Origin: Alphaproteobacteria bacterium
GTDB lineage: Bacteria; Pseudomonadota; Alphaproteobacteria; JAIXQD01
Length of the DNA: 64,000 nucleotides
Assembly: GCA_965246895.1 (NCBI GenBank)
Contig: OZ251993.1
Location: 640,490 to 704,489, forward strand
Reading direction: 5' to 3'
The notes beneath the pieces were generated by a model. That model had not been told where the DNA came from and made no database searches. It saw only the letters and a program-made list of their open reading frames with translations. Position 1 is the first letter of the stretch. Each line of letters begins with the position of its first letter. This document shows positions 12,273 to 41,319 of the stretch, one piece after another. The position numbers and the translations under genes are program-made.

Positions 12273-12349
12273 TCAGTCTCCTTGATGCTTATCAGATGCT
12301 TTTGGACATTATCAATCTCGTAAAAGATTGGTTCAAGATAGGGATGGGG

Positions 12350-13606: not shown

Positions 13607-13718
13607 TTGGGCTGGAACAGGCTGATGCGAATAGAATGGCGTTGGATGCTAACCCTTGCAAACACTTAGTGTTTCTTTGGGTAATTTAGATTTTATTGGA
13701 ACTCACTGGATGAGTAAC

Positions 13719-13808: not shown

Positions 13809-13861
13809 GCAGGAATGATCGGTCGAGGGCTTATTTACCGCGCCATGGCCAAGCGCGCAAT

Positions 13862-15770: not shown

Positions 15771-18158
15771 ATGGCCTCAACCCCTGATTCTACTGGTTTC
15801 TTTCCGCAGCGCGCCTTGACGCTATTGCCGCTTTTGCTGGTCGCGGTTGGGCTGCTAATTATGGCCGGAGCGGCGCTGCGTCTTACCCAATTACCACCGC
15901 TGCCAAGCTTGCGCGCGATCGAACCCGTGCAGCAGGCGCAAACCGCACTGGGCTATGAGGGCTATCTCGGCGCACTGCAGCGGTATATGGCTGCCCCTTC
16001 AATGAACGGCGTCACGGAATTGCGCCGCTTTCAAACCAATGCCGAGCAAGCAATCATGACCTTGCAAAGCTTGAATGAGCCTGCGCTCGACGCTCCTGCC
16101 TGGGCTGCCGTATTGACCCTGTTTCAAAGTGCTACAGGCCGTATCGAGGATAGTTTAAGCAGTGGCCAAGCCTTGCAGCCCGATCGTTACACGCCGCTTT
16201 ATACCGCCTATCAACGTTTAGCTACGCTATCGTCAACCGTGCAACTAGCCGGCACGAACGCCACACAAGCCGCGCTGGCTAACCGCGCAGCACAGCAGCG
16301 GCAGCTGCTTTGGTGGCTGTGGGGCGGTATTCTGCTGGGGCTGACAGGCGCGCTCTGGTGGCTGTATCGCCAGCGTCAAGCCGCAGACATGGTTGTGGAA
16401 AGTGCCGATGGGCAAATGCGCCCAGGAAAATTTAACGTTCGCTTCGGCAGCGCCGCGCAGGCAACCTTCCAGGGACTAGTGGCCGAGCTTACACGCACGG
16501 TCGAGGGGCTGCGCAGTGCCGATATGCCCGCCACCTTGCAGAATGTGGAGGAGCTTTGCCGCGCATTGGCACGCACCGTCGCCCTCACGCATGAGGATCT
16601 GACCGGCACAGCCAGCGCGATGCGTGCCACGGGCGACCGCTGGCAGCAAAGCGAGGACAGGCTTGATACCCTCGTCGCTGCACTCGAAACGCGTGCCGCG
16701 ACTGTGGCGGAGATTGCCAAACTGACCGGCGCGCAGGTGCAGGGTAGCTTGAAGGATATCGTTTCTGCGCAAACGCAGATGCGCTATGCCGCAGGGCAGG
16801 TGGCTGATACCTTCACGCAATCCGGTGGCCGCGCTGAGGAGCTGAGCGAGCGGCTGCTGGCCGCGACCAATCTCTTGCGCGCCAGCGGTAAGGTGCTGCA
16901 GGAAACGGTCGATAGCGTCCGTACACGCATGCTCGATGCGACATCCGCGCTAACGCAGACCGATGCGCGCTTAACGACCGTGATCGAGCATAACAATGTT
17001 CGCCTGGGCGAACTCGCCAGCCAGGCCGAGGCCGTGCTCGCTCGCGGTGCGGAAGGGCAGGAGGCGTTAGCCACGCTAACCGCTGCCAGTGACCGCATTC
17101 ATGCCACGGCGCAAAAGCTGGAGCTTTCGGAATCTGATCTGGGGCAGGCTGTCGCGACCATGCTGGCGCAGAGTGATACTTTCGCGCCGCTGACGGAACA
17201 GCTACGCGAACTGCATGCGCAGTTGGCGCAAGGCAATGCGGCCACAACCCAAACAGCGATCATGCCGGATGCCACCGTCTCTCGCCTGGAAGCTGCGGCC
17301 GACCGCCTGGCCGATCTCACGGATGAAATGCGCAGCGGCAATGCGATTCAGCTTGCGCCATTAAATAATGCTCTTGATCAGTTGGCGCGCCTCTCGCAAT
17401 TGACGGATACGCTTGGCGCGATGTTGGGGCAGCTAGAAAAGGTTGCAACTGCGCAGCCGGTAACGACTATAGCTAGCACAGCCGCGCCCACGATCATTGA
17501 CAATGTCGAGCTCAGCGATATGGCGGCCCTTCGCATCAACGCCAGCTTGCAGCTGGTGCAGGGTCAGGTCAGCGAACTGTTGGGTCGCCTTGCGGGCGAG
17601 CAGCAGCAGCTGATTGAGCAGGTCGGTATCGTGCAGCGCACGTGCGAGCAACTACGCGGCCAGCGGTTCGACCGCGCGCATCTGGACGAGGCGCTAAACA
17701 TGCTGGGCCTGCAAATTGAGCGCAGCCATAGTGGCTTTACGGGTGAACTGACCGGTTTCTTAAACCGGTTCGAGCAGGCGCTTGCTGTGCCGATGCATGG
17801 GGACGACACTAATACTAGTCCAGAGGTAACGCCGCTGGCACGCGCTATCCTCGCCAAGCTGCGCGGTGATACGAATGGCGATACTGCAAATGCGGAATCT
17901 GTCGAAGCCGCCACGGCGGAAATATCTTTGCGCGATGCGCTGACACGCATGACGCAAATCAAGAAGCTGACAGGCGCGCTTAATCGGCAGAGCGAAGGCT
18001 TGTCGGCCATGGCTGCTGCCGCGCCAACTGCCGAGGCGACTGCGCTCGCTAATCAGGCCCGGGCGCTCATCACCGAAGTGATGGATGCCATCAGCGAGCT
18101 TTCCGCCACCGCCGCGACGATCACCGAGACGGCAGACCGATTGAACCAAGCAAGCTAA
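15771..18158 (+). CDS. Large membrane-anchored Ala/Leu/Gln-rich coiled-coil protein (hypothetical)
   Basis: 795-aa ORF, N-terminal TM, two internal TMs, extensive predicted coiled coil; antisense ORFs are GC artefacts. Confidence 0.5.
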   Translation: MASTPDSTGFFPQRALTLLPLLLVAVGLLIMAGAALRLTQLPPLPSLRAIEPVQQAQTALGYEGYLGALQRYMAAPSMNGVTELRRFQTNAEQAIMTLQSLNEPALDAPAWAAVLTLFQSATGRIEDSLSSGQALQPDRYTPLYTAYQRLATLSSTVQLAGTNATQAALANRAAQQRQLLWWLWGGILLGLTGALWWLYRQRQAADMVVESADGQMRPGKFNVRFGSAAQATFQGLVAELTRTVEGLRSADMPATLQNVEELCRALARTVALTHEDLTGTASAMRATGDRWQQSEDRLDTLVAALETRAATVAEIAKLTGAQVQGSLKDIVSAQTQMRYAAGQVADTFTQSGGRAEELSERLLAATNLLRASGKVLQETVDSVRTRMLDATSALTQTDARLTTVIEHNNVRLGELASQAEAVLARGAEGQEALATLTAASDRIHATAQKLELSESDLGQAVATMLAQSDTFAPLTEQLRELHAQLAQGNAATTQTAIMPDATVSRLEAAADRLADLTDEMRSGNAIQLAPLNNALDQLARLSQLTDTLGAMLGQLEKVATAQPVTTIASTAAPTIIDNVELSDMAALRINASLQLVQGQVSELLGRLAGEQQQLIEQVGIVQRTCEQLRGQRFDRAHLDEALNMLGLQIERSHSGFTGELTGFLNRFEQALAVPMHGDDTNTSPEVTPLARAILAKLRGDTNGDTANAESVEAATAEISLRDALTRMTQIKKLTGALNRQSEGLSAMAAAAPTAEATALANQARALITEVMDAISELSATAATITETADRLNQAS

Positions 18159-21222: not shown

Positions 21223-22465
21223 TAACGGCGGTAATATCCGTCAGCGAAAAGATAGGGCTGTTTTGCAGACTGGTGAGTCGGTTTGTCCATTCTGGTTTAC
21301 TGGCGAATTGCGTTAGGGCTTCCAATACCTGCGGGTCATATTGCGTGCCCGCTTTCTGGCGTAATATGTCTAAGGCATCGTTCGAACTCATGCCCTGCCG
21401 ATGCGCGCGATTGGAAACCATTGCCACGAAGGTGTTGACGACAACGCAGATGCGGGCGGTCACGATAATGTCGGTGCCTCGCCGGCCTTCCGGCAAGCCG
21501 CTACCGTCGTAATGCTCATGCAGTTGGCGTAGCGTTTCAACGACCGGCAATTCAAACTGAATGATCGATAGCACGTCCGCTGCCGCCAGCATCGAGCCCC
21601 GCACTAGCGCCAATTCTTCCGCGGTTAAGGTGGTGGCTTTGGTCAGAATTGTTTGCGGCACCAGCACTTTGCCGAAATTCATAAGAACGCCTGCGATTTC
21701 TGCGGTCTCGGCATCAAGATCGGGCAGATTCATAATAGTGGCAAGGCGACTCGCAATTTCGCCGACAAGTGCTGAATGGCCAGCGGCATGCGGGTCGCGC
21801 CGATCGACGATCGCCACGCATACGTCCAGCACCTGCCGCAGCATCTTTTCACGGCGGTCGCGCTCGGTAATGACAGAGGTTATGTCGCTTTCCGTAATCA
21901 GGATCGCATCTTTAATATGCGCGGTGTCAGCTACGGGGATATAACTTGTCTGCGTAATACGGGGATTAAAGCTAGTTGGATTGTCGTCGACATGGATCAA
22001 CGGTGCGCCAGTGCGGAAGGCTGCGGTCAACCGGCTCCGCATGATCCGGGCCTGTTCTGCGCCCACCATGGTCGTGAAGGTCGAGCCGATCAATTCGTCG
22101 CTGCTGCGCCCGGCACGGCGCGCGGCTTCCTTATTCGCAAACAAAATCCGTTCCCATTTATCGGCCAGGATAATCGAGCGAGGCTCACTCGATGTCATCA
22201 GTTCGAGCAGATCGGCGCGATAGCCAAGGCGCGCTTCCAACGCTTCCGCTTCAATCGAGACTGGTGGCTGCGCCGTGACGAATTTGTAGGTCTCAGATTT
22301 CTGTTGCCAGGCGATAATGAAGAGCGCCAGCGTCGCCAAACCCGCCATCGCGGCCCAGCCGGTGGCATAATCTGGATGCGATAAGCCGGCTGCGATCGAA
22401 AGCAGAATAAGGCTGCCGGCAATCACGGCCAGAATGCGCTGGCGAAGGAAATCCGGTAAACTCAT
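21203..22465 (-). CDS. Membrane-anchored HD-GYP c-di-GMP phosphodiesterase (GYP variant GLP)
   Basis: HD motif HAAGHSALV; HEHYDGSGLPEG. Confidence 0.7.
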   Translation of the reverse strand: MSLPDFLRQRILAVIAGSLILLSIAAGLSHPDYATGWAAMAGLATLALFIIAWQQKSETYKFVTAQPPVSIEAEALEARLGYRADLLELMTSSEPRSIILADKWERILFANKEAARRAGRSSDELIGSTFTTMVGAEQARIMRSRLTAAFRTGAPLIHVDDNPTSFNPRITQTSYIPVADTAHIKDAILITESDITSVITERDRREKMLRQVLDVCVAIVDRRDPHAAGHSALVGEIASRLATIMNLPDLDAETAEIAGVLMNFGKVLVPQTILTKATTLTAEELALVRGSMLAAADVLSIIQFELPVVETLRQLHEHYDGSGLPEGRRGTDIIVTARICVVVNTFVAMVSNRAHRQGMSSNDALDILRQKAGTQYDPQVLEALTQFASKPEWTNRLTSLQNSPIFSLTDITAVNATTLR

Positions 22466-22563
22466 GCAGCTGTCATGTAATCAGGAAAAGGGTAACAGCT
22501 TGTTAATTTTGAGCTATCATGCCGCAGGCTCGTTGCGGGCGATAAACACAGTAGAGGTAACCA

Positions 22564-23873
22564 TGGGTATCAATACCAGCCTGTTTCATCACGAACGCGC
22601 ATTAAACGAGGCAGCGCAGCGCATGGAGCCGTACAAAGCGGAGCGGGTAGCGATCCAACTGCACCTATCTCGCCTACAAAAGCATCGGCGGCAACCACAT
22701 CATATTCGGATTGCGGTCGAAACGTTCGAGCATCATGTAAAACCACTAGGCGGACAGATTTTTCCACTAACATTAGGCGATATTTTTTATCTAACCGATT
22801 CGACAGATTTACTGGCAGTCGAAGCGGCTATCGAGCGGCAACGCACTTTATTTGGCGATGATCCGATCATAGAATTCGCGCCTCAGCTCAACAGCGATGC
22901 CGCAGATAATTTCTGTACCTGGTATCATCTTGAGCGCGACTACGATATTTTCATGACGGCCTGCCGGGAAGTGCACCGCGTAGCCGAGCAGTCGCGAAGC
23001 TTGCTGTTGCAAGAACAGGCAATCAAAGAAGCAGGACAACTGTTGCGCGCTGTCGATCCCGCAATATTGGGACGGCTAGAGGAAGCGATCACACGGGCTG
23101 ATCTTAGTAATATCATTCGCAGTCAGATGGCTTGCACAATGCTGCCGGGCGAGGCTTTGCAACCAGTCTTCCGCGAATATTTCGTCTCGGTTGCAGATCT
23201 ACGCGATACAGTTGTGCCGGGCATCGATCTTGATGCTAACCGCTGGTTATTCCAATATTTAACGATCGTGCTGGATCGCCGGATGATGGCGCATATCACG
23301 CACGAGCAGGAAATCCGCAGTGGCGCACAGGCTTTCAGCCTGAATATGAATATATCCACGATCCTCTCGCCAGACTTCCAGAAATTCGATGCCATGATTC
23401 CTAGCTTGTCGAGGGGGCGATTGGTAATCGAGTTTCAGTTGATCGATATCTTTGCCGATCTTGGCGCTTATATTTTTGCGCGTGATTATTTGCAAGAGCG
23501 TGGCTATCGCATTGCGATCGACGGTCTCACGCATCTAACCTTGCGTTATGTCGACCGCGCGCGGCTTGGCGCTGATCTCGTCAAACTGTATTGGACGCCA
23601 GACGGGCTCAATACATTGGATAAAACGCTGGCGCAGAATTTCCGTGATCAAGTTCTAGAAACCGGCCAGGCACGGACTATTCTTTGCCGTTGTGAGGATG
23701 AAGCTGCGCTAGAGTTGGGCCGGAACTGCGGCATCATCATGTTCCAGGGGCGCTATGTCGAACGGCTCTATAATTTCCAACGCAACCGTATGCAGCCAAC
23801 GATTGAAAGTCGTGTGCGCGATCGGGAGCGCTTGATGACGGATCTGACGCCCTTGGTTGCGACCCGGATTTGA
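22564..23873 (+). CDS. Hypothetical protein with degenerate EAL-like C-terminal domain (paralog of 61598..62857)
   Basis: IAIDGLTHLTLRYVDRARLGADLVKLY resembles the EAL DDFGTGYSSL...LKID core but lacks catalytic residues; start moved to MGINTS (RBS GAGG). Confidence 0.45.
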
Positions 23874-23876: not shown

Positions 23877-24605
23877 TTAAGCTGCGGTTTTGTTGAATAA
23901 ATCCGGCCATTTATGAAGTGGGTATTTACCGAACGGCCCTTGTTGGCTACGCCAATAGTCGATGATGCGCGGAAATTGGTTTTGCTCGCCGTTGTTTGTG
24001 AGGCTGCTGTAAGCCATGCGATTGGGCAGAGGCAATAGACGAATGCCGTCCAACCGCTCGGCGCGGTTGGCATAAGCTTCGTCATCCAAATGTTCAGCTA
24101 GCGCACTGGCCAGCATAATTACCTCGTCCGTGCCAAGACGGCGCTTGGCTTCCGCGCGGCGCGCCATCAGCTGATCCAGTGCAACCTGTGCGCGGCTAGA
24201 AATCTCGTTATCTTCGGCGCGGGCGATATAGATCGCGCGTACGAAATGATGCAACTCGGCTTGGCTCAGTTCAGGCAGCCAGATCAGCATGCCGGAACCC
24301 ATGCCGGTTACGGATTCTAATTCAAAGCATTGCTCGCAAAAGATACAGGCGGTAGCGAGATTGGCCAGCGTAGGCTCACCCTGTTCGCCAGACCTGAAAT
24401 GCACACGTTGGAATTTTTCGGCGCGGAACCCGCAATAGCGACAGGTAAAGTCGTCGCGGCTCAAGACTTTATTGCGGAGCCGGGGCCAGTCCGCAGCATT
24501 AATCCGCGGCGCAGGTTTTGCATTGGATTTATCTGGTTTGCCAGCCGTCACCTTGGCGCGGGGCACGCGCCGCACGCCAAGGATCAACGGTAGGAGTTCA
24601 CTCAC
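23877..24605 (-). CDS. IcmJ/DotN-like cysteine-rich protein (type IVB secretion)
   Basis: FTCRYCGF...ATACIFCEQCFELES...LIWLPELSQAEL closely matches recalled IcmJ/DotN motifs; last gene of syntenic block. Confidence 0.6.
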   Translation of the reverse strand: MSELLPLILGVRRVPRAKVTAGKPDKSNAKPAPRINAADWPRLRNKVLSRDDFTCRYCGFRAEKFQRVHFRSGEQGEPTLANLATACIFCEQCFELESVTGMGSGMLIWLPELSQAELHHFVRAIYIARAEDNEISSRAQVALDQLMARRAEAKRRLGTDEVIMLASALAEHLDDEAYANRAERLDGIRLLPLPNRMAYSSLTNNGEQNQFPRIIDYWRSQQGPFGKYPLHKWPDLFNKTAA

Positions 24606-24618
24606 TGATGTATACTTT

Positions 24619-25056
24619 TTAACCGCCTAGACCTTGTTGAAGCTTTTCATATTGCGGTTGTGCTGTTCCGTTAAAGAACGAATCCTTCACTGTGCCGATT
24701 ACTGATGGCAACGAGAAGAGACCAGCAGCAACTGCGCCCTTAGTTACGATCTTCGGCACACCGCCCTGGAAACCTGATGGGTTTTCCGAATACTTTTTCG
24801 CATCAAGCAGCGTCGAGATGCCGAACACTGTGCCGCCAACATATGCCGCTGCCGAGAACGCTGGCAACACGCCGGACAGGTTGCCTGTCACATCGTTGAC
24901 CAAGTTTTGAACGCCGCCAGATGCCGTGTTAGCGGTTGGCACAGTACCTTGAGCAAACGCCATTTCAGGGAACGCTACAGCAAGCGTGAACATGCCCATC
25001 GCCACGACTGCATTCAACAACGCAGCCTTGCTAGTTTCGAGTTGTTTATTGACCAT
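24619..25056 (-). CDS. IcmD/DotP-like small inner-membrane protein
   Basis: 145 aa, 2-3 TMs; shares motif LFSLPSVIGTVKDSF with the next gene (paralog pair like DotE/DotP); position in block. Confidence 0.45.
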   Translation of the reverse strand: MVNKQLETSKAALLNAVVAMGMFTLAVAFPEMAFAQGTVPTANTASGGVQNLVNDVTGNLSGVLPAFSAAAYVGGTVFGISTLLDAKKYSENPSGFQGGVPKIVTKGAVAAGLFSLPSVIGTVKDSFFNGTAQPQYEKLQQGLGG

Positions 25057-25157
25057 AATCTTCTCCTCCGTTTGTATATTGGTACCACCTGTACCTGGTT
25101 TAATTCTGCTCTGTAATGAATAACCCGTCGAGCTTTTTTTATAGTTTCATATGAACA

Positions 25158-26135
25158 TTAGGTCAGGATTGCACACGAACTGCCAGGTCCGCAGCCAAGC
25201 GTTGCCTCAACCATCTTAATGGCGGGCGCGATATTGACGAGCGCCGCGCCAGCGATCAAATGCGTCATTGGTGCCATTAGGCTGCCAGGGCCGCCTTTGC
25301 CCTCAAGCGAGCCATAGAGTACCCATAAGCCGCGTAGAATCGCGATTAGCCCAATCATACCTAGCCAGACGAAGATCGCGTTGAAAACATTATCAACGCG
25401 CGCTGCATCTGCCGCCGCCATGCCGACTCTATCATAAGCTAGCGTTGATACGGCACTTGCTGTCGAAGTGCTGAATACGGTCTGTAAAACAGTTTTTACC
25501 AGTGGTGCAAAAGTAATCAGTGCTGTGCCTATGCCTAAACGCACAGCGATGCCCTTCTTGGAAACATTGTCCTGTTGATACTGATAGTTGGCTAGCGCTG
25601 AAATGCCGCCAATAATCATGAACATGCCAGACAGAAAGGCGATCAGGTTCAGTCCGATTGCCAGTGCGGGCAGCAGGTCCATAACCATACTGACCAGCGC
25701 AGAATCAAGTCCTTCACCGTTTACGGCTTCAAGTTTTTTGTTGTATGCAAACGCGTTGGTTTCTTTAAATACGCTACTTTGTAAAACACCGATTACAGAT
25801 GGCAATTGAAACAAGGCTGAAGCGCCGAAGGTTCGAGCAATTAGCCCTGTCATTTTTACTTTTTGCCCGGGCGCGGCAGAATAATCGATGGCCGAGTTCA
25901 ACACTTGAATGATCATAGCTGTGCCACCGATATAACTCACAGCTGAAATAAGAGGAATTAACCAGCGAAACTGACCGCTTGTATTCGTGATGATTGTGCC
26001 CACACTTTCCTGTGCCCACGCCATGCTTGGCAAGAGCAGAAGGCATAGCGGCAGCAGGGCGACAAAGCGCGTTATAAGCAGACGAGACGCAAAATTACAC
26101 AGCATTTTATTTATTTCATCATCAAAATGTTTCAC
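25158..26135 (-). CDS. IcmC/DotE-like polytopic membrane protein
   Basis: Signal peptide; N-terminal ~130 aa paralogous to 24619..25056 (LFQLPSVIGVLQSSVFKE); multiple TMs. Confidence 0.45.
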   Translation of the reverse strand: MKHFDDEINKMLCNFASRLLITRFVALLPLCLLLLPSMAWAQESVGTIITNTSGQFRWLIPLISAVSYIGGTAMIIQVLNSAIDYSAAPGQKVKMTGLIARTFGASALFQLPSVIGVLQSSVFKETNAFAYNKKLEAVNGEGLDSALVSMVMDLLPALAIGLNLIAFLSGMFMIIGGISALANYQYQQDNVSKKGIAVRLGIGTALITFAPLVKTVLQTVFSTSTASAVSTLAYDRVGMAAADAARVDNVFNAIFVWLGMIGLIAILRGLWVLYGSLEGKGGPGSLMAPMTHLIAGAALVNIAPAIKMVEATLGCGPGSSCAILT

Positions 26136-26173
26136 TTGTATTAATATTGGGATTTAATCATGGATTCTCAAGG

Positions 26174-26207
26174 AAAAAGCCCGACCAGATGGCGTATCTG
26201 GCCGGGC
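26174..26207 (-). terminator. Intra-cluster Rho-independent terminator/attenuator between IcmG-like and IcmC-like genes
   Basis: gcccggccagat-acgcc-atctggtcgggc stem followed by TTTTT on minus strand. Confidence 0.5.
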
Positions 26208-26239
26208 TTTATGGCATTGATGCTGCCTAATATTTAGGC

Positions 26240-27589
26240 TTAGCGGATGACGCCGCCACTGCCTTCGACAATCCAGCGGCCATTTTCCTGCCGGATGGCC
26301 GTGACCTGGCCAATGCCGGGCAGGCTATCGCCGGGCACCACGCGTTTCAGCTCGGCTGAGCCCGGTTGTGGCGATACCCATGCCATGCCAGGCGTTGCGG
26401 CACGCAGCACCCAGTTGCTCTTGCTTGCAGTCGGCGCGCGCGTCTTGGGTGAGCGCGGGGTGTTATCGTCAGCCATCATCATGCTGTCTTCAGCCGGCTT
26501 ACTAACCTTAGCTTTCGGCGTTGCCTTTGGCGAACTGCCTTTCGGCGAGGCTGCGGCCATAGCCATAGGTGCGACGGCACTGTGTGCATTTGCCGATTGT
26601 AGTTGGGCTTGTAGCGATTGTTGTGCGCGCGTCAGTTGATCGATCTTTTTCTGCAAGCTCGCGTTTTCTGCACGCATTGCGGTCAGCTCGCCATCGTTTA
26701 CGACTGGCGGCGCTGTGACAACAGCGGCCTGTGTTTGTTGCTTTTTCAAGCTAACGACTTCTGCCTGCGACGCTTGGAGAGATTGCTGCATCTGCGTTAG
26801 CTGGCTTTCTGTTTCGGCCAAGCGTGCGTTCAAGCCAGCCATCGCTTCGGTATTCGCAACTGTTGCCGCAAGTGGTGCTGCAGCAGCGCCATTAGCAGTC
26901 GTCGGTACAGCAACGGGCATAGGATTTGCAGTAGCGGTTGTAGTCGCCACTGGCGCTGCCGCTGGCTGGGCTTGCGGCGTCGGCGTGACCAAATCGTCAG
27001 GCAGGGTTGTCTGCCAACGGTTATTGCTATCCGCTGTTGGGCCGGAATTTGGCACAGGATTGCTATTATTTGCCGGAAGGGGGGCGGGGGTCGGCGCGTT
27101 GGCATCTGTTGGCACCACAACGCTCTTAACATCACTTGCGGCAGTATTGGCCGCTTGCAGCACAGTACCAGGCGAAACAGGATCGCCGCCAGTCGTGAAT
27201 GTGCGATAAGCCATATAGCCACCGCCCGCAATGACGCCGGCAATAATAATATAAAAGATCAGCGAACCAATGCCGGTGCGCGACCGCGACATCTCGGCTT
27301 CGGCAGCTTCCGCCATCTCGCCGCGATCTTCTTCAGCATCGCTGTCATCGTGGTCATGCTCGTCATATCCGGTATCGTCGCCATCGGCCAACGGGTCGGC
27401 ATCATCGACGATATCGTTCATGTCGTCGTCGACGAAATCGGCGTCGTCGTGCAAGTCACTTTTTGCACGGCGGCTGTGCGAGCCGCCAAAGTCTGCCTCG
27501 TCATCGATTAACTCTTGCGGCTCATCATGGGTTGCCGCTTCGTCCTTTGGATTGCGCGGATCAAAATCATCGATGGGATGGTTAGCCAT
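26240..27589 (-). CDS. IcmG/DotF-like protein (acidic N-terminus, single TM, coiled coil, periplasmic C-domain)
   Basis: Architecture and position between IcmE-like and IcmC-like genes. Confidence 0.5.
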   Translation of the reverse strand: MANHPIDDFDPRNPKDEAATHDEPQELIDDEADFGGSHSRRAKSDLHDDADFVDDDMNDIVDDADPLADGDDTGYDEHDHDDSDAEEDRGEMAEAAEAEMSRSRTGIGSLIFYIIIAGVIAGGGYMAYRTFTTGGDPVSPGTVLQAANTAASDVKSVVVPTDANAPTPAPLPANNSNPVPNSGPTADSNNRWQTTLPDDLVTPTPQAQPAAAPVATTTATANPMPVAVPTTANGAAAAPLAATVANTEAMAGLNARLAETESQLTQMQQSLQASQAEVVSLKKQQTQAAVVTAPPVVNDGELTAMRAENASLQKKIDQLTRAQQSLQAQLQSANAHSAVAPMAMAAASPKGSSPKATPKAKVSKPAEDSMMMADDNTPRSPKTRAPTASKSNWVLRAATPGMAWVSPQPGSAELKRVVPGDSLPGIGQVTAIRQENGRWIVEGSGGVIR

Positions 27590-27622
27590 GGTTTATCTGC
27601 CTTATAGTTTCGTTTTATATTG

Positions 27623-29224
27623 TCAGCGGTTGATGATGACGGGAGAGGTGCCGCCGGCGGGGATGACATTAATGCCGCCCCCGTAAGCGTTCGATGGGTA
27701 ACCGGATTGATAGCTGCCTTGATAGCCCTGGCTTCCCTGATACCCGGTGCCGGACGTATAGGGATTATAACCTGTCGATCCTGTGCTGGCATAGGGATTT
27801 CCATAACCACTGGTCGCACCATACTGACTACCATAGGGATTATTGCCATACTGGCCGGAGCTATATTGCCCAGCCCCATATTGGCTGCCGAACTGCGGGC
27901 TGCCATATTGGCCCCCATAGGGATTGGCGACGCCGGCCACGCCGTTAGCATAAGTTGGCTCAGGATTATTTTCGAAAACGCTGCTTGTGAAAAACAGGCC
28001 GATGGGCGTGCCGACGGCAACGCGTACTAACGGCTTAATCTTCGAGGCTTCAGTATTGATGATTTGCGAAATGCGGTCGCCTGCTTCCTGTCCGCCCTGG
28101 GCTAGCCCTTCACGCAAACCCGCGCGCGACCGCTGCGAGATGACGACGCCATCCTGCACGATCGTGGTCGAATTGCTGTCTTGTGTAAAAGCACGCGAGA
28201 AGCCTGAGATGAATTCCGCGGCTGCCGGGACGATCACTCGCGACAGATAGCGCTTGTCTGTCTCGCTCGCAACAGCGCCTAACGTCGTATCCGGGTTAAG
28301 CGCCAGAATATCGACGGGATAGTCCTTGCCTTTAAAATTGATGTTGGTGAAGCGCATGATCAGATAATCTTCCGTGCTCTCGAAACGGCCAATCACCTTG
28401 CCGCCCGAAAAAGGGCCAGAGAGAACTTGCGCCATGATCGGCCCTGGCACATCTGAATTCGCTTCGATCGACATTTGCCCATAGTTGATCGTTCCCGCTG
28501 GCACCAATGTCTTGCCGCGGTTGAAAGCTTGCTGCTGGTTTTGATCGCTACCCTGTCCGCTGCCACCTGAACCACTCGTCGTCACATCAGCAATTTTGGT
28601 CACTGAAATGATTTTTGATGCGGCAGGTTGCCAACCTTGCACAATCTGCTGCATTTGCTGTTGCATCGCGGACGCGAGATTCTGATCAAGCACTGGCTCG
28701 GGCGCAGGGGCGGGTGTGTTAGGACGAATCTGCTGTTGTTGTGCCTGTTGCTGCTGCTGAGCGGGCAGAGCCTGTGGCTGTTGTTGTTGCGCTTGCGGTG
28801 CACGGAATTCCGCCAAAGGATCGTCCGCATTTTGTGCGCCGGGCTCAAGATTGGTCATCTGCGTGGTGTCGCCCATCGGCGTGGGCATCGCGCTGCCGCC
28901 CTGCTGGGCTGCGCTTTGGGCACGCTGTTGCGAGGCTTGCGTCACGGCTTCCTGGAATGCGGGCGGCGCTTCGCCGCCAGGTGTTGCGGAAATGGTCGAG
29001 CCACCATTGACGCGGCTTTCTACGTCTTTTGGCTTGTCTGTTGAAAAAACACCGAGCGCGGCGCTAGCAATGGCGCCGCCGCCAACCAGCAACAAGAAAA
29101 TTTTGAAAACCGGGCTGGCTTGCCAGGCCGAGGCAATATTCTTGCGAATGCTACGCTTTTCGCGTGGCTGCTCATGCTCTTCTGCATCTTGTGGTGGGGC
29201 ATCGAAATCGTCGTAATCGGCCAT
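27623..29224 (-). CDS. IcmE/DotG (TraO)-like protein with VirB10/TrbI C-terminal domain and low-complexity tails
   Basis: VirB10 signature TLVPAGTINYGQMSIEANSDVPGPIMAQV...IKPLVRVAVGTPIGLFF; N-terminal TM; poly-Q stretch; C-terminal G/Y/Q/S-rich tail. Confidence 0.7.
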   Translation of the reverse strand: MADYDDFDAPPQDAEEHEQPREKRSIRKNIASAWQASPVFKIFLLLVGGGAIASAALGVFSTDKPKDVESRVNGGSTISATPGGEAPPAFQEAVTQASQQRAQSAAQQGGSAMPTPMGDTTQMTNLEPGAQNADDPLAEFRAPQAQQQQPQALPAQQQQQAQQQQIRPNTPAPAPEPVLDQNLASAMQQQMQQIVQGWQPAASKIISVTKIADVTTSGSGGSGQGSDQNQQQAFNRGKTLVPAGTINYGQMSIEANSDVPGPIMAQVLSGPFSGGKVIGRFESTEDYLIMRFTNINFKGKDYPVDILALNPDTTLGAVASETDKRYLSRVIVPAAAEFISGFSRAFTQDSNSTTIVQDGVVISQRSRAGLREGLAQGGQEAGDRISQIINTEASKIKPLVRVAVGTPIGLFFTSSVFENNPEPTYANGVAGVANPYGGQYGSPQFGSQYGAGQYSSGQYGNNPYGSQYGATSGYGNPYASTGSTGYNPYTSGTGYQGSQGYQGSYQSGYPSNAYGGGINVIPAGGTSPVIINR

Positions 29225-29236
29225 GGCGCAGGTTCC

Positions 29237-30550
29237 CTATTGTATGGCTTGTTCGGTCAGCCGCACGCGCACCAGCGCACCCGCATCGGACAGCAGCACG
29301 ACGGGCGTATCGCCAACCTCGTAAACCGTCATCCCATCGGCGCTCGATACGCTGGCATCCCAGCTTGGTGAAATCATGGATAGCGGCGTGCGCACGAAAG
29401 TACGGTCGCCCACTTTGTAAGCAGCCGTGCGGCGGTCGGTGCCAGTGACTTTCAGCTTCTTGGCGCCCGAAGGTATGGAATTATCCAAGACGGACATGAT
29501 CACATCATCGCCCGCGGTAATCTTTTGCCGTTCGATTAACGAGACCTTTGCATTCGGCCCGTTCCGCGGAATGCGCGCATCGTAGCGGTAATGCACGATG
29601 TCACCGCCGGCCGAAAGGCGGAAGGTGATGGGTGTGGCCAAATCTTTCAGGCGTACCGATAGATTGCCGTAGCCATACCGTGTCATCGGGGTGATGCGGA
29701 TGATATGGCCGTTTGTTTCTGGCGCCGGAATATCGAAATTGCCGCCAACGCCGATATCGATGATTGGCCACGGCTGGCCGGTCGCATCCAACACGGTCAG
29801 CGTTGTCACATAGCCAACTGCAACAGCAATTTCCGGCGGCGCGACGCCAGGATCAAGGTTGATCGTCGTGACAGCTACTTCCGGCTTTGGCTGGCCATAG
29901 GACGGTGGTACGGAGGCATTCTGTGTATCCTCCATCTTTTTCATAACGCCGTTAATCTGGTCAGGCGACATTGGGAACAGTCCTTTGACGGCCGAATTAT
30001 AAGCGCGGTCGTTCATCTTCGCTTCGGACTGCGCGCGGTTGGCATCGGCCTGCGCGGCAACTTCTGCGGCGCGTGCAGCTTCCTCGGCCAAGGCGGCTTG
30101 CAAAGCTTCTGTTGTCTCGCGCGTGTTGGCTGGGCGCGGCGCAGTGTTAAGCGGCGCGTTCGGATCATTCGCTACCGAGGCCGCGGTCGAGCCGGGCACG
30201 TTGCCGTTGCTATCCGGTTGTTGGATCGGCGCTGCAGCCGTAGTTGGTTCTGATCCACCCAAGCCTGGGAAGCCGCTGTTCGGCACGCCTGGTGCGGTCG
30301 CCCCGCCTAAGGGGTTGCGGGCGTCGGACGCGGTCGGGTTTTGGCCAAGGCCGCCATCAGCAGCAGGGCTATTCATTTGGTTCGCAACGTTATTCGAGGC
30401 GCGGACCAGCGATGGGCCGGACGGGGGCGGATTACTCTGCGCAAGCACCGTTCCTGGCAGCGCCATCATTAAGGCAAGCAGTCCCGGCAGCAAATAGCGC
30501 CCGAACGGCGGCTTGAAAGCGGGTAAAACAGTCAGCATGGGCATAGGCAT
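29237..30550 (-). CDS. IcmK/DotH (TraN)-like outer-membrane-associated protein
   Basis: Signal peptide, ~110-aa Pro/Gly/Asn-rich disordered linker, conserved C-terminal beta-rich domain; synteny. Confidence 0.55.
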   Translation of the reverse strand: MPMPMLTVLPAFKPPFGRYLLPGLLALMMALPGTVLAQSNPPPSGPSLVRASNNVANQMNSPAADGGLGQNPTASDARNPLGGATAPGVPNSGFPGLGGSEPTTAAAPIQQPDSNGNVPGSTAASVANDPNAPLNTAPRPANTRETTEALQAALAEEAARAAEVAAQADANRAQSEAKMNDRAYNSAVKGLFPMSPDQINGVMKKMEDTQNASVPPSYGQPKPEVAVTTINLDPGVAPPEIAVAVGYVTTLTVLDATGQPWPIIDIGVGGNFDIPAPETNGHIIRITPMTRYGYGNLSVRLKDLATPITFRLSAGGDIVHYRYDARIPRNGPNAKVSLIERQKITAGDDVIMSVLDNSIPSGAKKLKVTGTDRRTAAYKVGDRTFVRTPLSMISPSWDASVSSADGMTVYEVGDTPVVLLSDAGALVRVRLTEQAIQ

Positions 30551-30705
30551 AAGAGGATGCGGCCAGTCTCTATAATAAAGGTAGATTCAGAGTTAATGGG
30601 ATTTGCCCGCCGTGTCGAGGGTGCTGGTGGCTTTAAGCCCTCAAATGGGCCTCATTACTGGATTAAAAGCCTCTGAATAGGACAGCGGCGTTGTCGCGCC
30701 GCAGA

Positions 30706-31536
30706 CTATCCGCCCTCAATCCAATTATTGATGCCAAGACCGGTCAGGTTATGCGTCGGTGGCACGGTTACGACTTCCAGCGTTAAAATGCGGCGACTTG
30801 CGTCTGTCTGCTTACCAGATAGCACCGTGACCATGATTGGCAATTGGATCAGCCATGATTTCGTGGCGTCAGGACGTTCTTCCATATGCACGATCACGGG
30901 TGCGCCAACTGGGGCTGCCGTCACAACCTGTTCCTTGGTGACGATACGCTGCATTAGCTGTGATTTATCGACGGCAGTGGCAAAAGCCTTCCAGCCGCGA
31001 TCGGTGAATTGGTCGCGGCTCGCTTGCAGGCGTTCATTCACATTGTGAAAGCCAAAATTCATGATGCTGGTAACTTCTGCACCGGCCCAAGACAGCACCG
31101 CTTGCTGTGTATAAGTAGGCGTTGCCAGCGGGGTCAGATATCGCGCGCGACCTTCAGTATTAGTGGCCGCGTAAACGCCGTTGTCGTTTTTTTGGTCAAG
31201 CGAGAAGACCAAGGTTGCGGCTATCAAAATTAAAACGAGAGCTTGGCTGACGATTACAAATCGCAGCCGCGCGATCGAAACTGTGCCACGTGCGGCATCC
31301 AGCACAAAAGCGGGGTGCGCGGCCATGCGCGTTTCGACATGCTGCATAATGGCAGCCGCCCCGCGATAAGCTTGATGTAAGCCGCCGGTTTTAATTTTTG
31401 AATTGGCCGGTAATTGCGGCCGGCTTTTATCCAGCCGCGCCTGTTTGATCGATTTTGCCACGGCTTCGGCAATGCGCGAACTATCGCCCGCATCGGCAGT
31501 GGTAAAAGGGCGATCCGGATCGTAATCAGAAGACAT
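30706..31536 (-). CDS. IcmL/DotI (TraM)-like protein, paralog 2
   Basis: Single TM then ~160-aa periplasmic domain; paralogous to 31540..32265 (DRGWKAF / GLGINNWIEGG versus TRGWDTY / GIGIDQWILTG). Confidence 0.5.
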   Translation of the reverse strand: MSSDYDPDRPFTTADAGDSSRIAEAVAKSIKQARLDKSRPQLPANSKIKTGGLHQAYRGAAAIMQHVETRMAAHPAFVLDAARGTVSIARLRFVIVSQALVLILIAATLVFSLDQKNDNGVYAATNTEGRARYLTPLATPTYTQQAVLSWAGAEVTSIMNFGFHNVNERLQASRDQFTDRGWKAFATAVDKSQLMQRIVTKEQVVTAAPVGAPVIVHMEERPDATKSWLIQLPIMVTVLSGKQTDASRRILTLEVVTVPPTHNLTGLGINNWIEGG

Positions 31537-31539
31537 TGA

Positions 31540-32265
31540 TTACTGCTTGCCTGTCAAAATCCATTGATCGATGCCAATGCCGTCTGGATTCTCAAGATTA
31601 GGCACGCGCTGCACAACCAGCGTCAAATCGCCCGTTGTTGGCTGTGGCTTTTCACCTACGCCCAGATACTCGATCGCATATGGAAATTTCAGTACCCACT
31701 GATAGACGCCGTTGACAACGCCTTGCCGCACAATCTGCGGGGCCGCACCGGGCGTGCCTTTAATATTTAGCTGCCGCTTGTCCATCGTCTCGATAATGCG
31801 GGCACTGTTCAATGCGGAAATATAGGTGTCCCAGCCGCGCGTCGTGAATTTGGGCGAAGCCGCCTGCAGCCGCATCCGGTAATCGCTGTAGGCGAAGGTC
31901 ATGGCTTCGGTCGCAGCCTGGCTGGCCCAGGCGACCACATCTTGGCGGTACGGCTGATCAAGCGGCACGATATCGATAATGCGCCCATCGGCGGTCGTCG
32001 CAAAGAAGCGGTAGCGCGGCTGGCTAAACAGGAAATAACCGATCAGAATGCCGAGCAATACCAAGATCGCGATCAGTTGCAGCAAGGCGATCCGAATTAG
32101 GGAGCGATAACCATCCTGATAGAACGCGTTGCGCGTAAAAATGGTATGGACAGCATCGCCCCCGCGCACCGCATCCGGGTCGGCAGTGACGGCACGCGCA
32201 GGCACTTTGGCGGTTGCCTTGGCCATTGGTTTTTTTGCAAGCGGCGCTTGGGTGTTCGGAGCCAT
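31540..32265 (-). CDS. IcmL/DotI (TraM)-like protein, paralog 1
   Basis: Same architecture; start ATG overlaps dcp stop (TGATG). Confidence 0.5.
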   Translation of the reverse strand: MAPNTQAPLAKKPMAKATAKVPARAVTADPDAVRGGDAVHTIFTRNAFYQDGYRSLIRIALLQLIAILVLLGILIGYFLFSQPRYRFFATTADGRIIDIVPLDQPYRQDVVAWASQAATEAMTFAYSDYRMRLQAASPKFTTRGWDTYISALNSARIIETMDKRQLNIKGTPGAAPQIVRQGVVNGVYQWVLKFPYAIEYLGVGEKPQPTTGDLTLVVQRVPNLENPDGIGIDQWILTGKQ

Positions 32266-34391
32266 CAGGTCGCTACCTTTGCTGAGCTATGAGTCTGGCT
32301 ATTGTCGTTCAAAAAGCCGAAATTGCGCAAGAGCGGTTCCGTGCCTGCATCGCGCCCGCGGAACTTGCGATAAAGCTCAGCCGGATCCTCGCTATCGCCC
32401 GCGCTATAGACGTAATCGTGCAGTTTCTGCGCAGTTGCAGGGTCAAATACGTTGCCAGTTTCTTTAAATGCCTCGAAAGCATCTGCATCCAAAACTTGAG
32501 CCCAGAGATAGCTGTAATAGCCGGACGCATAACCGGTCGGGTTGTCGAACAGATGGCCGAAACTGGTTGATCTGTAAAATGGCTGCGCTGTTTCTGGCAC
32601 TTCGAGACGCTGATAAAGGTCTCTTTCGAATGCGCGCAGATCATCGACATCAGCGTCATCCGTCAAAGCGTGCCACGCTAAATCTAATTGGATCGAAGCA
32701 ACAAAACCCGCGGCAAAATTACCTTGCTTAAAGCGCTTTGATTGCCGAATTTTTTCGCGCAAAATCTGCGGCATCGGTTCACCGGATTTATAGTGCTTCG
32801 CATAAGTTCCCAGCACCTCGTCCGTCATCAGCCAATGTTCAAATAGTTGTGATGGCAACTCAACAAAATCCCATTTTACATTTGTGCCCGCTAACGATGG
32901 ATAGTCGGCTTTTGTCAGCATGCCGTGCAGCGCATGTCCAAATTCGTGGAACACAGTTTCAGCATCACGCAGCGATAACAAGCATGCATCGCCTGTTGCG
33001 GGTTTATTGAAATTGCAAACATTATAGATGATGGGCGTTTTCTGCTCGTCAGGCGCTAGCGGGTTATAGCCGCGCAGTTCGCTCATCCAGGCGCCGCCTC
33101 GCTTCGAGGGGCGTGCATAGAAGTCGCCCAGGAATAACGCGCGGTGCGTGCCATCGGCATTCAATACCTCCCAGGCGCGCACGTCCGAGTGATACAGCGA
33201 CAAGCCGCTGACCTCTTTGAACGTAATGCCAAATAGGTTGGTTGCAGTCGCAAAAACACCTTTCAATACTTGGTCGAGCGTCAGATATTGCTTGGCTTCC
33301 TCTGCATCAAAATCAACTAGCTTCTTACGCAGGATGTTGGCGTAATAGGCCCAGTCCCACGGTTTGATTTCAGCATTATGGCCAAGGTCACGGGCCAAGT
33401 CTTCAAGTTCAATTTTTTCGGCGAGCGCCGCCGGGCGCGCATGTGTCCAAACTTCATTTAACAGCGTCTGAACATTGGCTGGTTTCTTCGCCATGCGGTC
33501 AGCCAGCACATAATCGTTGAAGCTGACATAGCCCATTTCGCGCGCTAGGGCGCGGCGCAGCTTCACAATCTCCAATACAATAATTTTATTGTCGTGCGCA
33601 TTATCACGGTCGCCGCGATCGTTCAAAGCTTTCCACAAATCTTCGCGCAGTTCTCTCCGCGGCGAGTGCATCATGAAAGCGCTGCGGTTCGAGCCGTTTA
33701 ACGTAATGATGTGCTGGCCTTGCAAATCATGCTCGGCCGCGGTTGCTGCCGCCGCGGCAATAACGGACTCTGGCAAACCTTCAAAGTCTTTTTCGTCTTT
33801 CAGCACCAGCATATAATCATTCTGCTCGGCTAGCTTGTTTTGGCTAAATTGCGTGGTCAATTCCGATAGCTTGATGTTGATGGCGCCTACGCGCTTTTTC
33901 GCATTCTCGCCTAGCTTCGCACCGCTTTCGACGAAATCCCGGTGATACTTTTCTACTAGCCGTTGGGCTTGCGGGGGCAGCTTGGCGCGCGCTTCATAAA
34001 CTGAATCGATGCGCGCAAACAGCGCTGCATTCAGCATAACGCTATTGCCATGTTCCGCTAACTGCGGCGCAATCTCGGTTTCAGTCTTTTGCAAAGCCTC
34101 ATTTGTATCAGCGCCAGTTAAAGCCCCAAACAAATTATGAATGCGGCTCAGCAACGCGCCTGCCGTTTCCATCGCGATGATCGTATTTTCAAAAGTCGGC
34201 GCGTCAGTGTTGTTCGCGATCGCGTCGATCTCGGCCTGCGCCTGCTTGATGCCTTCGCGCAAAGCGGGCAGATAATGCTCCGACTTGATGGCGGCGAAAG
34301 GTGGCAGGCCAAACGGCGTTTGCCAAACAGTGAGAAGCGGATTGGCCAAAAGGTCGGAATGCGTATCAGTCATGCCTTCTAATATAGGCAC
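32265..34391 (-). CDS. dcp: Peptidyl-dipeptidase Dcp (M3 family zinc metallopeptidase)
   Basis: HEFGHALH zinc motif; colinear with recalled E. coli Dcp throughout. Confidence 0.9.
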   Translation of the reverse strand: MPILEGMTDTHSDLLANPLLTVWQTPFGLPPFAAIKSEHYLPALREGIKQAQAEIDAIANNTDAPTFENTIIAMETAGALLSRIHNLFGALTGADTNEALQKTETEIAPQLAEHGNSVMLNAALFARIDSVYEARAKLPPQAQRLVEKYHRDFVESGAKLGENAKKRVGAINIKLSELTTQFSQNKLAEQNDYMLVLKDEKDFEGLPESVIAAAAATAAEHDLQGQHIITLNGSNRSAFMMHSPRRELREDLWKALNDRGDRDNAHDNKIIVLEIVKLRRALAREMGYVSFNDYVLADRMAKKPANVQTLLNEVWTHARPAALAEKIELEDLARDLGHNAEIKPWDWAYYANILRKKLVDFDAEEAKQYLTLDQVLKGVFATATNLFGITFKEVSGLSLYHSDVRAWEVLNADGTHRALFLGDFYARPSKRGGAWMSELRGYNPLAPDEQKTPIIYNVCNFNKPATGDACLLSLRDAETVFHEFGHALHGMLTKADYPSLAGTNVKWDFVELPSQLFEHWLMTDEVLGTYAKHYKSGEPMPQILREKIRQSKRFKQGNFAAGFVASIQLDLAWHALTDDADVDDLRAFERDLYQRLEVPETAQPFYRSTSFGHLFDNPTGYASGYYSYLWAQVLDADAFEAFKETGNVFDPATAQKLHDYVYSAGDSEDPAELYRKFRGRDAGTEPLLRNFGFLNDNSQTHSSAKVAT

Positions 34392-34406: not shown

Positions 34407-34904
34407 CTACATATCGCCGAAATCGAGATCGGGCAGGCGCGCGCCGGCCTCATATTCAGTCGAGCCCTTGCATTTCGGGCAAATTCGATTGTGCCGCCCT
34501 TGGCTTTGAAAGGGCACAACGCACATTAAACAGACGCGGGTCGCCACGCCCTCCTTGGGCGCCAGCGCTTCCTTTAGCTCCGCACTGCGGACGCGGCTAC
34601 GCTCCGTCTGGCGCACCCGCACCTCATCAGGGGAGCGCATCACGCGCTTCCGGCCCGGCGCGGCCCGGCGGGGGAGGCCGAGCCGTGCGGCGCGGGTCAT
34701 AATGGCGGGAACAGAGCGGCTCAGCTGCGCGCTGATCAATTCTGGTGACAGGTTACGGTGCCAAAGATCGCGGAGGATATTATCCTGCATGGCCCAGCTG
34801 GCCGGAATGCCGTCAGCCATAACCTCTTGGGCATTATCCTGCCGCAGCACGCTTGCGAAAGAGATTTCGGTGGCAGTTGGGGTCAAAACGTTCGTCGTCA
34901 TCAA
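34407..34904 (-). CDS. gcrA: GcrA-family cell-cycle regulator
   Basis: N-terminal W...LSPELISAQLSRSVPAIMTRAARLGL; C-terminal Cys-containing conserved region. Confidence 0.6.
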   Translation of the reverse strand: MMTTNVLTPTATEISFASVLRQDNAQEVMADGIPASWAMQDNILRDLWHRNLSPELISAQLSRSVPAIMTRAARLGLPRRAAPGRKRVMRSPDEVRVRQTERSRVRSAELKEALAPKEGVATRVCLMCVVPFQSQGRHNRICPKCKGSTEYEAGARLPDLDFGDM

Positions 34905-40774: not shown

Positions 40775-41319
40775 AGCTCGAACAGCTGTTCCGTTCGGCG
40801 ATACAGCCGGTAGTTCTGGATGTCGTCCGGCATCAGCTGCATGGCTTCGGGCAGCGTCACCCAGCGCGGTTGCTTGTCACTTTCCTGCGGCGTTAGAGGT
40901 GCGCGGCTGTCGGCGATCACGAGAAAACGCAGATCGTACAAGGTGCAAGGCAGGCGCGGATTATAAGCGAGACCAATCACGCTGATGTCAAACAAAGTAA
41001 TATTAGTATCCACCGGCACCCCCGCTTCCTGCATCACTTCGCGTTGTACAGTGCAAATAACGGTGCCGTCCTCCGGCTCGTACTTGCCGCCTGGGTTGAG
41101 CCACAAGTTCAACTTATCATTGCGGATCACGAGCAGCTTTTGCGCATTTAGGTCAACCACCCAGCCAGCAGCGGTCAAGCAGCCACCGGCGCTGCGCCCT
41201 GTTGCAGGATTGAGTTCGGAAAAGAATTTACTGAACGCCTGCTTATCAGCCGCTTCTCGGGCGTCGAATGGCTGATGCGCATCCAGCAGCTTTCGCGCAT
41301 ACGCAACATCCAGCGTCAT
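40771..41319 (-). CDS. NUDIX hydrolase
   Basis: Nudix box GGKYEPEDGTVICTVQREVMQEAG. Confidence 0.75.
   Translation of the reverse strand: MTLDVAYARKLLDAHQPFDAREAADKQAFSKFFSELNPATGRSAGGCLTAAGWVVDLNAQKLLVIRNDKLNLWLNPGGKYEPEDGTVICTVQREVMQEAGVPVDTNITLFDISVIGLAYNPRLPCTLYDLRFLVIADSRAPLTPQESDKQPRWVTLPEAMQLMPDDIQNYRLYRRTEQLFEL

Follow-up and report, generated by a model that had tools for sequence, protein, structure and literature searches.

An eight-gene Dot/Icm-type block at a conserved chromosomal site in a Micavibrio-related alphaproteobacterium, probably one piece of a dispersed type IVB secretion system

The DNA analysed here, a stretch of 64,000 nucleotides from a Micavibrio-related alphaproteobacterium with a small genome (the whole stretch is called the window below), contains eight adjacent genes which, judged by sequence homology, encode part of a Dot/Icm-type, or type IVB, secretion system (T4BSS). 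We consider it probable that the block belongs to a protein-secreting T4BSS (pT4SSi) which has been inherited vertically and which is complete, though its genes are dispersed. All eight open reading frames (ORFs) are intact and lie on the minus strand between positions 23877 and 32265 (block coordinates are window positions), separated by 3-155 nucleotides, just as a preliminary description of eight tightly packed minus-strand genes had it. They are identified as follows.

31540..32265, minus strand: icmL/dotI paralogue 1 (IcmL1), 241 residues with a single transmembrane (TM) segment; VirB8-like inner-membrane component.
30706..31536, minus strand: icmL/dotI paralogue 2 (IcmL2), 276 residues.
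29237..30550, minus strand: icmK/dotH, 437 residues; signal peptide, Pro/Gly/Ala-rich linker and C-terminal DotH domain; outer-membrane core.
27623..29224, minus strand: icmE/dotG, 533 residues; TM segment, Gln-rich linker, VirB10/TrbI domain (241-416) and G/Y/S/Q-rich tail (417-533).
26240..27589, minus strand: icmG/dotF-like, 449 residues; acidic N-terminus, TM segment, coiled coil and C-terminal DotF-like domain.
25158..26135, minus strand: icmC/dotE, an IncI TraQ-like polytopic membrane protein of 325 residues, of which the N-terminal 140 form an IcmD-like module.
24619..25056, minus strand: icmD/dotP, a TraR-like small membrane protein of the VirB2 family, 145 residues, with a long signal peptide and two hydrophobic helices.
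23877..24605, minus strand: icmJ/dotN, 242 residues; Cys-rich subunit of the DotL coupling complex.

The assignments come from profile scans of family libraries (Pfam and NCBIfam) and from phmmer searches against the chains of solved structures in the PDB, and are strong for the two IcmL proteins, IcmK, IcmE and IcmJ. IcmL1 matches PF11393 (E=3.8e-46) and NF038072 (E=3e-47, 160.6 bits against a cut-off of 175); in the PDB it finds Legionella DotI (3wz4, E=5.3e-23, 85 bits) and IncI TraM (E=7.4e-17, 65 bits), and it is 72% identical to its orthologue in the related locus L001 (GCA_050248995.1). IcmL2 also matches PF11393 (E=2.8e-33), and the two proteins are paralogues, as previously proposed, with 29% identity (E=2e-24). 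Such a pair of IcmL genes occurs in 34 related loci, and Coxiella has two IcmL-type copies, icmL.1 and icmL.2. IcmK is matched by PF12293 over residues 193-428 (E=1.7e-75) and by the DotH structure 6x62 (E=1.8e-45); the identical protein (P0001) is found on an NCBI/ENA contig of 1,644,468 bp, and its nearest relatives (P0002-P0007) have 80-88% identity. IcmJ matches NF038221 with E=2e-28 (99.4 bits, where the cut-off is 100) and the DotN structures 5x42 and 5x1h with E=6e-22. The preliminary description had likened its CxxCGF...ACxFCxQCF...WLPEL motifs to those of IcmJ/DotN, and the two Cys motifs and (I/Y)LPEL do align with DotN in the structural matches.

IcmE matches the DotG/IcmE family NF033900 with E=2e-39 (135 bits, cut-off 750) and IncI TraO with E=2.8e-26 (93 bits), and contains the Pfam TrbI domain (E=7e-9). 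Its match to DotG in the PDB (E=4.6e-17) covers only the last ~270 residues of the 1048-residue Legionella protein. At 533 residues it is about half as long as Legionella DotG, which ends right after the VirB10 domain, whereas here the domain is followed by a low-complexity tail of about 115 residues rich in Gly, Tyr, Ser and Gln (residues 417-533; window 27623-27975, minus strand). Tails of this type, variable in sequence, are present in many relatives, and are absent from the Micavibrio-labelled loci L085 and L048.

The assignment of the IcmG-like protein is moderate. It matches NF038218 (IcmG_DotF) with E=6.1e-7 in its C-terminal part only (residues 283-449) and has no meaningful match in the PDB; the position of its gene between icmE and icmC is kept in 31-37 loci. 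For IcmC and IcmD the assignment is transitive. Singly, the 325- and 145-residue proteins have no library match, apart from a weak match of the latter to the TrbC/VirB2 pilins (E=0.009). Comparison of their first 140 residues (31% identity, E=2e-14) shows them to be paralogues, in agreement with the earlier proposal of two paralogous small membrane proteins of IcmC/IcmD type. The icmC alignment has 28 members, the 325-residue protein and 27 positional orthologues, and 25 of the 28 match NF033883, the IncI1 TraQ family (best E=4e-17). A hidden Markov model (HMM) made from the 27 orthologues, with the window sequence excluded, finds the 325-residue protein with E=4e-58 and the 145-residue protein with E=2e-13, and the L001 orthologue of the latter matches DUF6750 (E=5.5e-7).

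In this region ARAGORN also called a 67-nucleotide tRNA-Arg(GCG) at 25155-25221 on the minus strand, overlapping the 3' end of the icmC-like gene. The call was rejected and is most likely a false positive, because it has no support from Rfam, which at its gathering threshold gives tRNA-Ser only.

Profile, PDB-chain and orthologue-HMM matches agree on the series icmL-icmL'-icmK-icmE-icmG-icmC-icmD-icmJ that had been proposed, and the family matches reach well beyond the VirB10 domain, to DotI, DotH, DotG and DotN. On our assignments eight Dot/Icm-specific components are co-located (DotI twice, DotH, DotG, DotF-like, DotE/TraQ-like, DotP-like and DotN), and a Dot/Icm-type system calls for at least six. 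This bears on the suggestion that only the VirB10 domain is real, and that the remainder is either of P-type (VirB8/9/10) or a chance resemblance. IcmE does carry a TrbI/VirB10 domain, DotI is VirB8-like, and the IcmD-like proteins give weak VirB2/TrbC matches. However, the block has strong and specific matches to the DotH, DotN and DotI families, which lack P-type equivalents at the sequence level, and it contains no VirB9, VirB6 or VirB4 signature, so that the suggestion is scarcely credible. A P-type VirB/VirD4 type IVA system (T4ASS) was likewise refuted as a candidate, since DotH and DotN are both present and the VirB10/TrbI domain is confined to IcmE.

The order from icmL to icmJ is identical to that in Legionella and Coxiella, and in most relatives it runs on into icmB. 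Further likenesses to the Legionella Dot/Icm system are the sequence matches to the structures of DotI, DotH, DotG and DotN, the splitting of the genes over several chromosomal regions, and the lack of a linked relaxase. There are also clear differences. The host is an alphaproteobacterium and not a member of the Legionellales; the NCBIfam equivalog scores of IcmL, IcmJ and DotG, quoted above, are all below cut-off; IcmC has the extra IcmD-like module at its N-terminus; icmM, icmN, icmO and icmP are not found upstream; and the genes are much more dispersed in this clade.

The block occupies a conserved chromosomal site. In the three closest relatives with gene context, namely L001, a Logan contig (L002) and a 313-kb JGI contig, the order is the same as in the window: aconitase, a GcrA-like gene, (an M3 peptidase), L, L, K, E, G, C, D, J, a convergent EAL-like gene, PAS/HD and Hsp33. 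The order aconitase, GcrA-like gene and block is found also in L004 (GCA_016124955.1) and L088. The break right after icmJ is common to the window, L001, L002 and the 313-kb contig, and is thus kept in lineages as distant as 57% identity in IcmK and 54% in IcmJ. When the window is compared with L001, L004 and L048, identity is 72, 66 and 62% for aconitase, 54, 48 and 43% for IcmJ, and 57, 56 and 44% for IcmK; by this measure the block genes diverge in step with aconitase. The flanking genes are alphaproteobacterial housekeeping genes (Hsp33, an EamA-type transporter, a PAS/HD-GYP-type protein, aconitase, ccm genes, a DivK/PleD-like pair, PBP1A and RF2). The preliminary description had named the flanks as ccm/divK/pleD/gcrA, of which the ccm genes and the DivK/PleD-like pair hold, and the "gcrA" is merely GcrA-like, with a score below cut-off. 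It had also given a guanine-plus-cytosine (GC) content of ~60%, which is too high: the window has ~55%, and the block (0.52-0.58) is equal to its flanks. On these comparisons the block is a chromosomal, vertically inherited feature of the lineage, and neither an oddity nor a mobile element.

The nearest mobile counterparts are the transfer systems of IncI1 (R64, ColIb-P9) and IncM (pCTX-M3) plasmids. Homologies have been stated between TraM and DotI, TraN and DotH, TraO and DotG, TraQ and DotE (IcmC), and TraU and DotO (Dmowski 2018, PMC6112013), and TraQ and TraR are described as distant paralogues of the VirB2 family (PMC6112013), a pair which resembles the IcmC/IcmD-like pair found here. 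The plasmid genes traM-N-O-P-Q-R-(S)-T-U code for homologous proteins in the same order, and the TraM, TraO and TraQ models match proteins of the window or their orthologues. Family and PDB matches therefore uphold the gene order that had been claimed as common to Legionella/Coxiella and IncI traM-N-O-P-Q-R-T, with the TraP, TraR and TraT equivalences being by operon position only.

It could be argued from this that the block is an integrated I-type conjugation system (IncI/IncM-like, with mating-pair formation type MPF-I) or the remnant of an integrative and conjugative element, and that it moves DNA. Counterparts in IncI exist for most of the genes (TraM, TraO and TraQ, to which may be added TrbC for the DotL of the clade, matched by the IncI TrbC model with E=3.8e-111), I-type systems occur on alphaproteobacterial plasmids such as those of Acetobacter persici and the megaplasmid of Methylorubrum extorquens AM1, and an integrase island linked to a tRNA-Ser lies only ~10 kb away, at 9.6-13.7 kb. 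But the plasmid systems have a NikAB relaxase and an oriT and transfer DNA, whereas the block is chromosomal, flanked by housekeeping genes and syntenic across distant species. The island has 44-50% GC, and the block has that of its flanks. Where both types of model match, Dot/Icm scores better than IncI, as the bit scores for DotG over TraO and DotI over TraM show, and the IcmK of the window is at most 34% identical to any plasmid DotH/TraN. Neither an integrase nor a relaxase adjoins the block. A reading of the translations and family scans of selected ORFs, rather than an exhaustive relaxase profile search, revealed no relaxase or nickase in the window or beside the clusters in L005, L010, L085 and L089. 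We therefore regard a DNA-transfer system as very improbable.

The window contains only part of the machine. For the outer-membrane core, DotH, DotG and a DotF-like protein are present; the window, which is where they were sought, yielded neither of the lipoproteins DotC and DotD. For the coupling complex, DotN is present with its Cys motifs kept, and DotL and DotM are not in the 64 kb. None of the other window ORFs of at least 60 residues matches the T4BSS-linked genes that recur in 86 related loci, and no ATPase or further type IVB gene is recognisable from the translations, so that the earlier remark of "no ATPase in view" is upheld for 64 kb. We attribute this to dispersal of the genes, which is evident in the relatives. 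In L004, icmJ is followed by a 993-residue protein (16668-19649 in L004) and then by DotM (NF033890, E=1.9e-57). Homologues of the 993-residue protein number over 1,300, and NCBI or JGI gives many of these the name IcmB in MAGs (metagenome-assembled genomes) labelled 'Alphaproteobacteria bacterium'; the IcmB of the clade has no meaningful match in the PDB.

The cluster genes were mapped onto 80 IcmB-centred loci, of which 49 have at least 9 kb upstream of icmB and are informative. The whole icmL-to-icmJ block is directly upstream of icmB in 31 of these; only icmJ (with C/D) is there in three, and none of the block in 15. Over all 80 loci icmJ adjoins icmB in 58. On the other side, dotM (then an ORF of ~170 residues, then dotL) comes after icmB in only 12 of 60 loci, and in L006 icmB stands alone between a polyhydroxybutyrate (PHB) regulator and lysS. 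Searches with IcmB also paired it with IcmK on contigs of 1.83 Mb, 273 kb and 916 kb. Three relatives, picked through IcmK and not through IcmB, have the pieces on a single contig at a distance from each other.

GCA_037200005.1 (L003/L005): K-E-G at 714-735 kb and C-D-J-B-dotM-x-dotL at 112-135 kb, ~600 kb apart.
GCA_027485855.1 (L087/L025): L-K-E-G at 17-38 kb and B-dotM-dotL at 80-103 kb, ~55 kb apart.
JGI Ga0633754_000013 (L088/L089): L-L-K-E-G at 550-571 kb and B-dotM-x-dotL at 270-293 kb, ~270 kb apart.

The ancestral arrangement reconstructed from these loci is gcrA-like-L-L-K-E-G-C-D-J-B(-dotM-x-dotL), broken many times at different points. The preliminary description had left a choice between a split system and a repurposed sub-assembly, and the evidence favours the former, with relatives displaying all intermediates from a contiguous icmJ-icmB-dotM-dotL to a lone icmB. 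It follows for genome scans that in this clade a T4BSS block without an ATPase reflects gene dispersal, and is uninformative on function.

The other choice deserves some discussion. It would mean that the ATPases and the coupling protein have been lost, and that the block is an orphan envelope structure with another role (adhesion, channel or scaffold) or a decaying remnant. The break falls at the very point where icmJ is usually succeeded by icmB; the 64 kb contain no ATPase gene; the genome is small (the contig is 1.64 Mb), which makes gene loss plausible; and the IcmB of this genome was not seen among the matches listed or the best 80 loci. This last point applies to those matches and loci only and does not amount to a negative search, and every relative picked through IcmK that had a sufficiently long contig also had IcmB. 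Moreover all eight ORFs are intact, and the block and its breakpoint have been kept across the lineages described above. We know of no role for DotN outside the DotL-DotM complex (PDB 5x42, 6sz9), which also counts against a sub-assembly. Overall we think such a loss unlikely.

We therefore return to a dispersed but complete T4BSS. In Legionella, the literature and structures have DotH, DotG and DotF forming the outer-membrane core with the lipoproteins DotC and DotD; the VirB8-like DotI assembles into a ring in the inner membrane, where DotE and DotP, small proteins of the VirB2 family, are also located, and DotN binds zinc and belongs to the coupling complex with DotL and DotM. The module in the window would accordingly supply three outer-membrane/periplasmic core proteins (DotH, DotG and DotF), the inner-membrane parts (two DotI/VirB8-like paralogues and two VirB2-family proteins of DotE/DotP type), and DotN of the coupling complex. 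None of these proteins can energise transport, and so the module cannot work alone. IcmB/DotO, DotL and DotM are presumably encoded elsewhere in the same genome and, by analogy, so would be DotB, DotA, DotC and DotD. The assembled machine would translocate effector proteins, and not DNA, into another cell, either a prey bacterium or a eukaryotic host. That the system is complete and working is suggested because the ORFs are intact, because they are kept together with the same breakpoint in distant lineages, and because they diverge in step with aconitase.

Several points weigh against this proposal. For this genome, of which the 64-kb window was read, IcmB/DotO, DotL, DotM, DotB, DotA, DotC and DotD have not been observed. 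Its IcmB is not among the 120 matches listed for each of two IcmB searches (~1,300-1,400 matches), nor in the best 80 of at least 592 loci. There is no identified effector in the window. Finally, according to the genome paper on Micavibrio ARL-13 (2011), evidence of type III or type IV secretion is lacking in that organism (PMC3189940).

To see how widespread the system is, one genome per GTDB species was scanned with the IcmB alignment. There were at least 599 pattern matches, of which at least 592 were confirmed by tblastn as IcmB/DotO homologues in species-representative genomes. In the preliminary description a T4BSS was held to be unusual in an alphaproteobacterium. With at least 592 such loci, it is not unusual here but, as far as homology searches can tell, a near clade-wide trait, and one already known in the sense that the NCBI and JGI pipelines name these proteins. 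The best 80 of the at least 592 loci have 58-75% identity and all come from uncultured genomes (MAGs), including a 2.46-Mb MAG chromosome of Micavibrio aeruginosavorus. The complete or near-complete contigs among them are 1.46-2.46 Mb long, compared with 1.64 Mb for the contig of the window.

These 80 are labelled Alphaproteobacteria, Micavibrio sp., Rhodospirillaceae, 'Bdellovibrionales', 'Pseudobdellovibrionaceae' or similar. Micavibrio is an alphaproteobacterium (PMC3189940), and the NCBI taxonomy (taxid 213485) keeps it in the Bdellovibrionales/Bdellovibrionota, which explains the 'Bdellovibrionales' and 'Pseudobdellovibrionaceae' labels. Because MAGs are mislabelled in this way, surveys based on taxon names will misattribute these T4BSS. 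We also checked whether the 'Bdellovibrionales' IcmB proteins come from the same MAG as L001, which is not so. In the literature, a link between Micavibrio or Micavibrionales and Dot/Icm was found as one passing mention, a list, in a survey of 2022, of seven marine Micavibrionales in which pT4SSi was detected and not described (PMC9418006); no description of the alphaproteobacterial system was found.

Other relaxase-less or non-Legionellales systems provide useful comparisons. The kib T4BSS of Pseudomonas putida IsoF carries out contact-dependent killing by delivering toxins into bacteria (PMC9519443). Like the present system it is of Dot/Icm type, has dotH, dotG and dotF among its genes and occurs in a host that is not one of the Legionellales, and it offers a functional precedent for a predatory lineage. 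Unlike it, kib is a recently acquired genomic island of 67 kb with an integrase, found in a few strains, whereas the system described here is ancient, dispersed and clade-wide; nor has an effector-immunity pair been identified here. 'Candidatus Comchoanobacter', an associate with a reduced genome, has a T4BSS of the MacSyFinder class pT4SSi, a class found in other marine lineages too, which likewise contains IcmB and lacks a relaxase (PMC9418006). Comchoanobacter is gammaproteobacterial, and its system is closest to that of Coxiella.

Genomes are small in the clade to which the window belongs, and among its members is an obligate predator of Gram-negative bacteria with an epibiotic way of life. 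We put forward, tentatively and as something short of an even prospect, that the T4BSS is an ancient, vertically inherited core organelle of the whole Micavibrio-like radiation (hundreds of species), independent of the Legionellales, that it is the long-sought device with which these epibiotic predators or parasites inject effectors into prey or hosts, and that its genes are dispersed, with the core operon behind a conserved GcrA-like regulator that could tie expression to the cell cycle. If the proposal is true, the statement of 2011 that Micavibrio lacks a type IV system would be wrong. In reviews the T4BSS is presented as characteristic of the Legionellales and their relatives (PMC11338181, PMC8896642), and the idea of a Legionellales-defining adaptation to eukaryotic hosts would need revising. 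The ARL-13 genome paper proposed secreted hemolysins (PMC3189940); a Dot/Icm-type machine would be a concrete candidate for the predation or host-attack organelle by which Micavibrio-type epibiotic predators kill and drain their prey. It would also provide a second deep lineage from which to reconstruct the evolution of T4BSS from I-type conjugation systems. The significance lies mostly in what the system implies, at the level of the clade, about predation or parasitism and about how T4BSS evolved; the peculiarities of the window add little to it.

On one contig only (JGI Ga0633754_000013, locus L089, 17424-23021), the genes directly downstream of dotL encode a 686-residue protein with a Pesticin domain and an NlpC/P60 + CHAP protein. 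Both are of peptidoglycan hydrolase types, and from their domains they may be cargo that the T4BSS uses against bacteria. A eukaryotic host may equally be the target.

The remaining observations concern the surroundings of the block. Two genes lie immediately upstream.

32265..34391, minus strand: M3 peptidase (PF01432, E=4e-119), not a T4BSS component.
34407..34904, minus strand: GcrA-like helix-turn-helix (HTH) protein (PF07750, E=2e-4, 22.1 bits against a cut-off of 26.9), matched in the N-terminal HTH part only.

The stop codon of the M3 peptidase overlaps the start of icmL1 (TGATG, window 32263-32267, minus strand), which suggests translational coupling, and the two genes are probably co-transcribed. 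An M3 peptidase between the GcrA-like gene and icmL is found only in the lineage of the window and in L001 and L002. The GcrA-like gene is 15 nucleotides upstream of the peptidase gene, and lies directly upstream of icmL in at least nine related loci (L001, L002, L004, L007, L010, L021, L026, L027 and L032) and on the 313-kb JGI contig. The C-terminus of the protein differs from the GcrA model and is Cys-rich. Rather than being the GcrA of the cell cycle, the protein may regulate the T4BSS operon specifically. A promoter and terminator scan of 22-35.2 kb gave counts no better than in shuffled sequence, and hence no operon boundaries.

At the other end of the block, a plus-strand gene at 22434-23873 converges on icmJ, with 3 nucleotides between the stop codons. 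Together with a paralogue at 61598-62857 (plus strand), it codes for a protein with a degenerate C-terminal EAL-like domain (E=1.7e-3 and 5.2e-10, respectively). The gene beside icmJ is kept in L001 and L002 (55% identity), and the 313-kb JGI contig has a 440-residue gene in the same position and orientation, which is probably its counterpart.

A low-GC island at 3000-13810 (0.44-0.50, compared with ~0.55) abuts a tRNA-Ser(CGA) at 13719-13808. Besides genes for two tyrosine integrases (9628-10758 and 12350-13606) it contains response-regulator, histidine-kinase and GGDEF genes, and it has the look of an integrated element that has nothing to do with the T4BSS block. The part of the window with the highest GC (~0.60) is around 15771-18158 (plus strand), which encodes a 795-residue protein rich in Ala, Gln and Leu, apparently a coiled coil with an N-terminal TM segment, with no Pfam match and no homologue in related loci. 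Lastly, the gene at 41319-42212 (minus strand) encodes a 297-residue, single-domain AAA+ protein (AAA and AAA_lid_9, ClpA/B-like). It is found near the T4BSS block in six related loci, with 70% identity to L001, and is probably a case of conserved synteny rather than a secretion ATPase.

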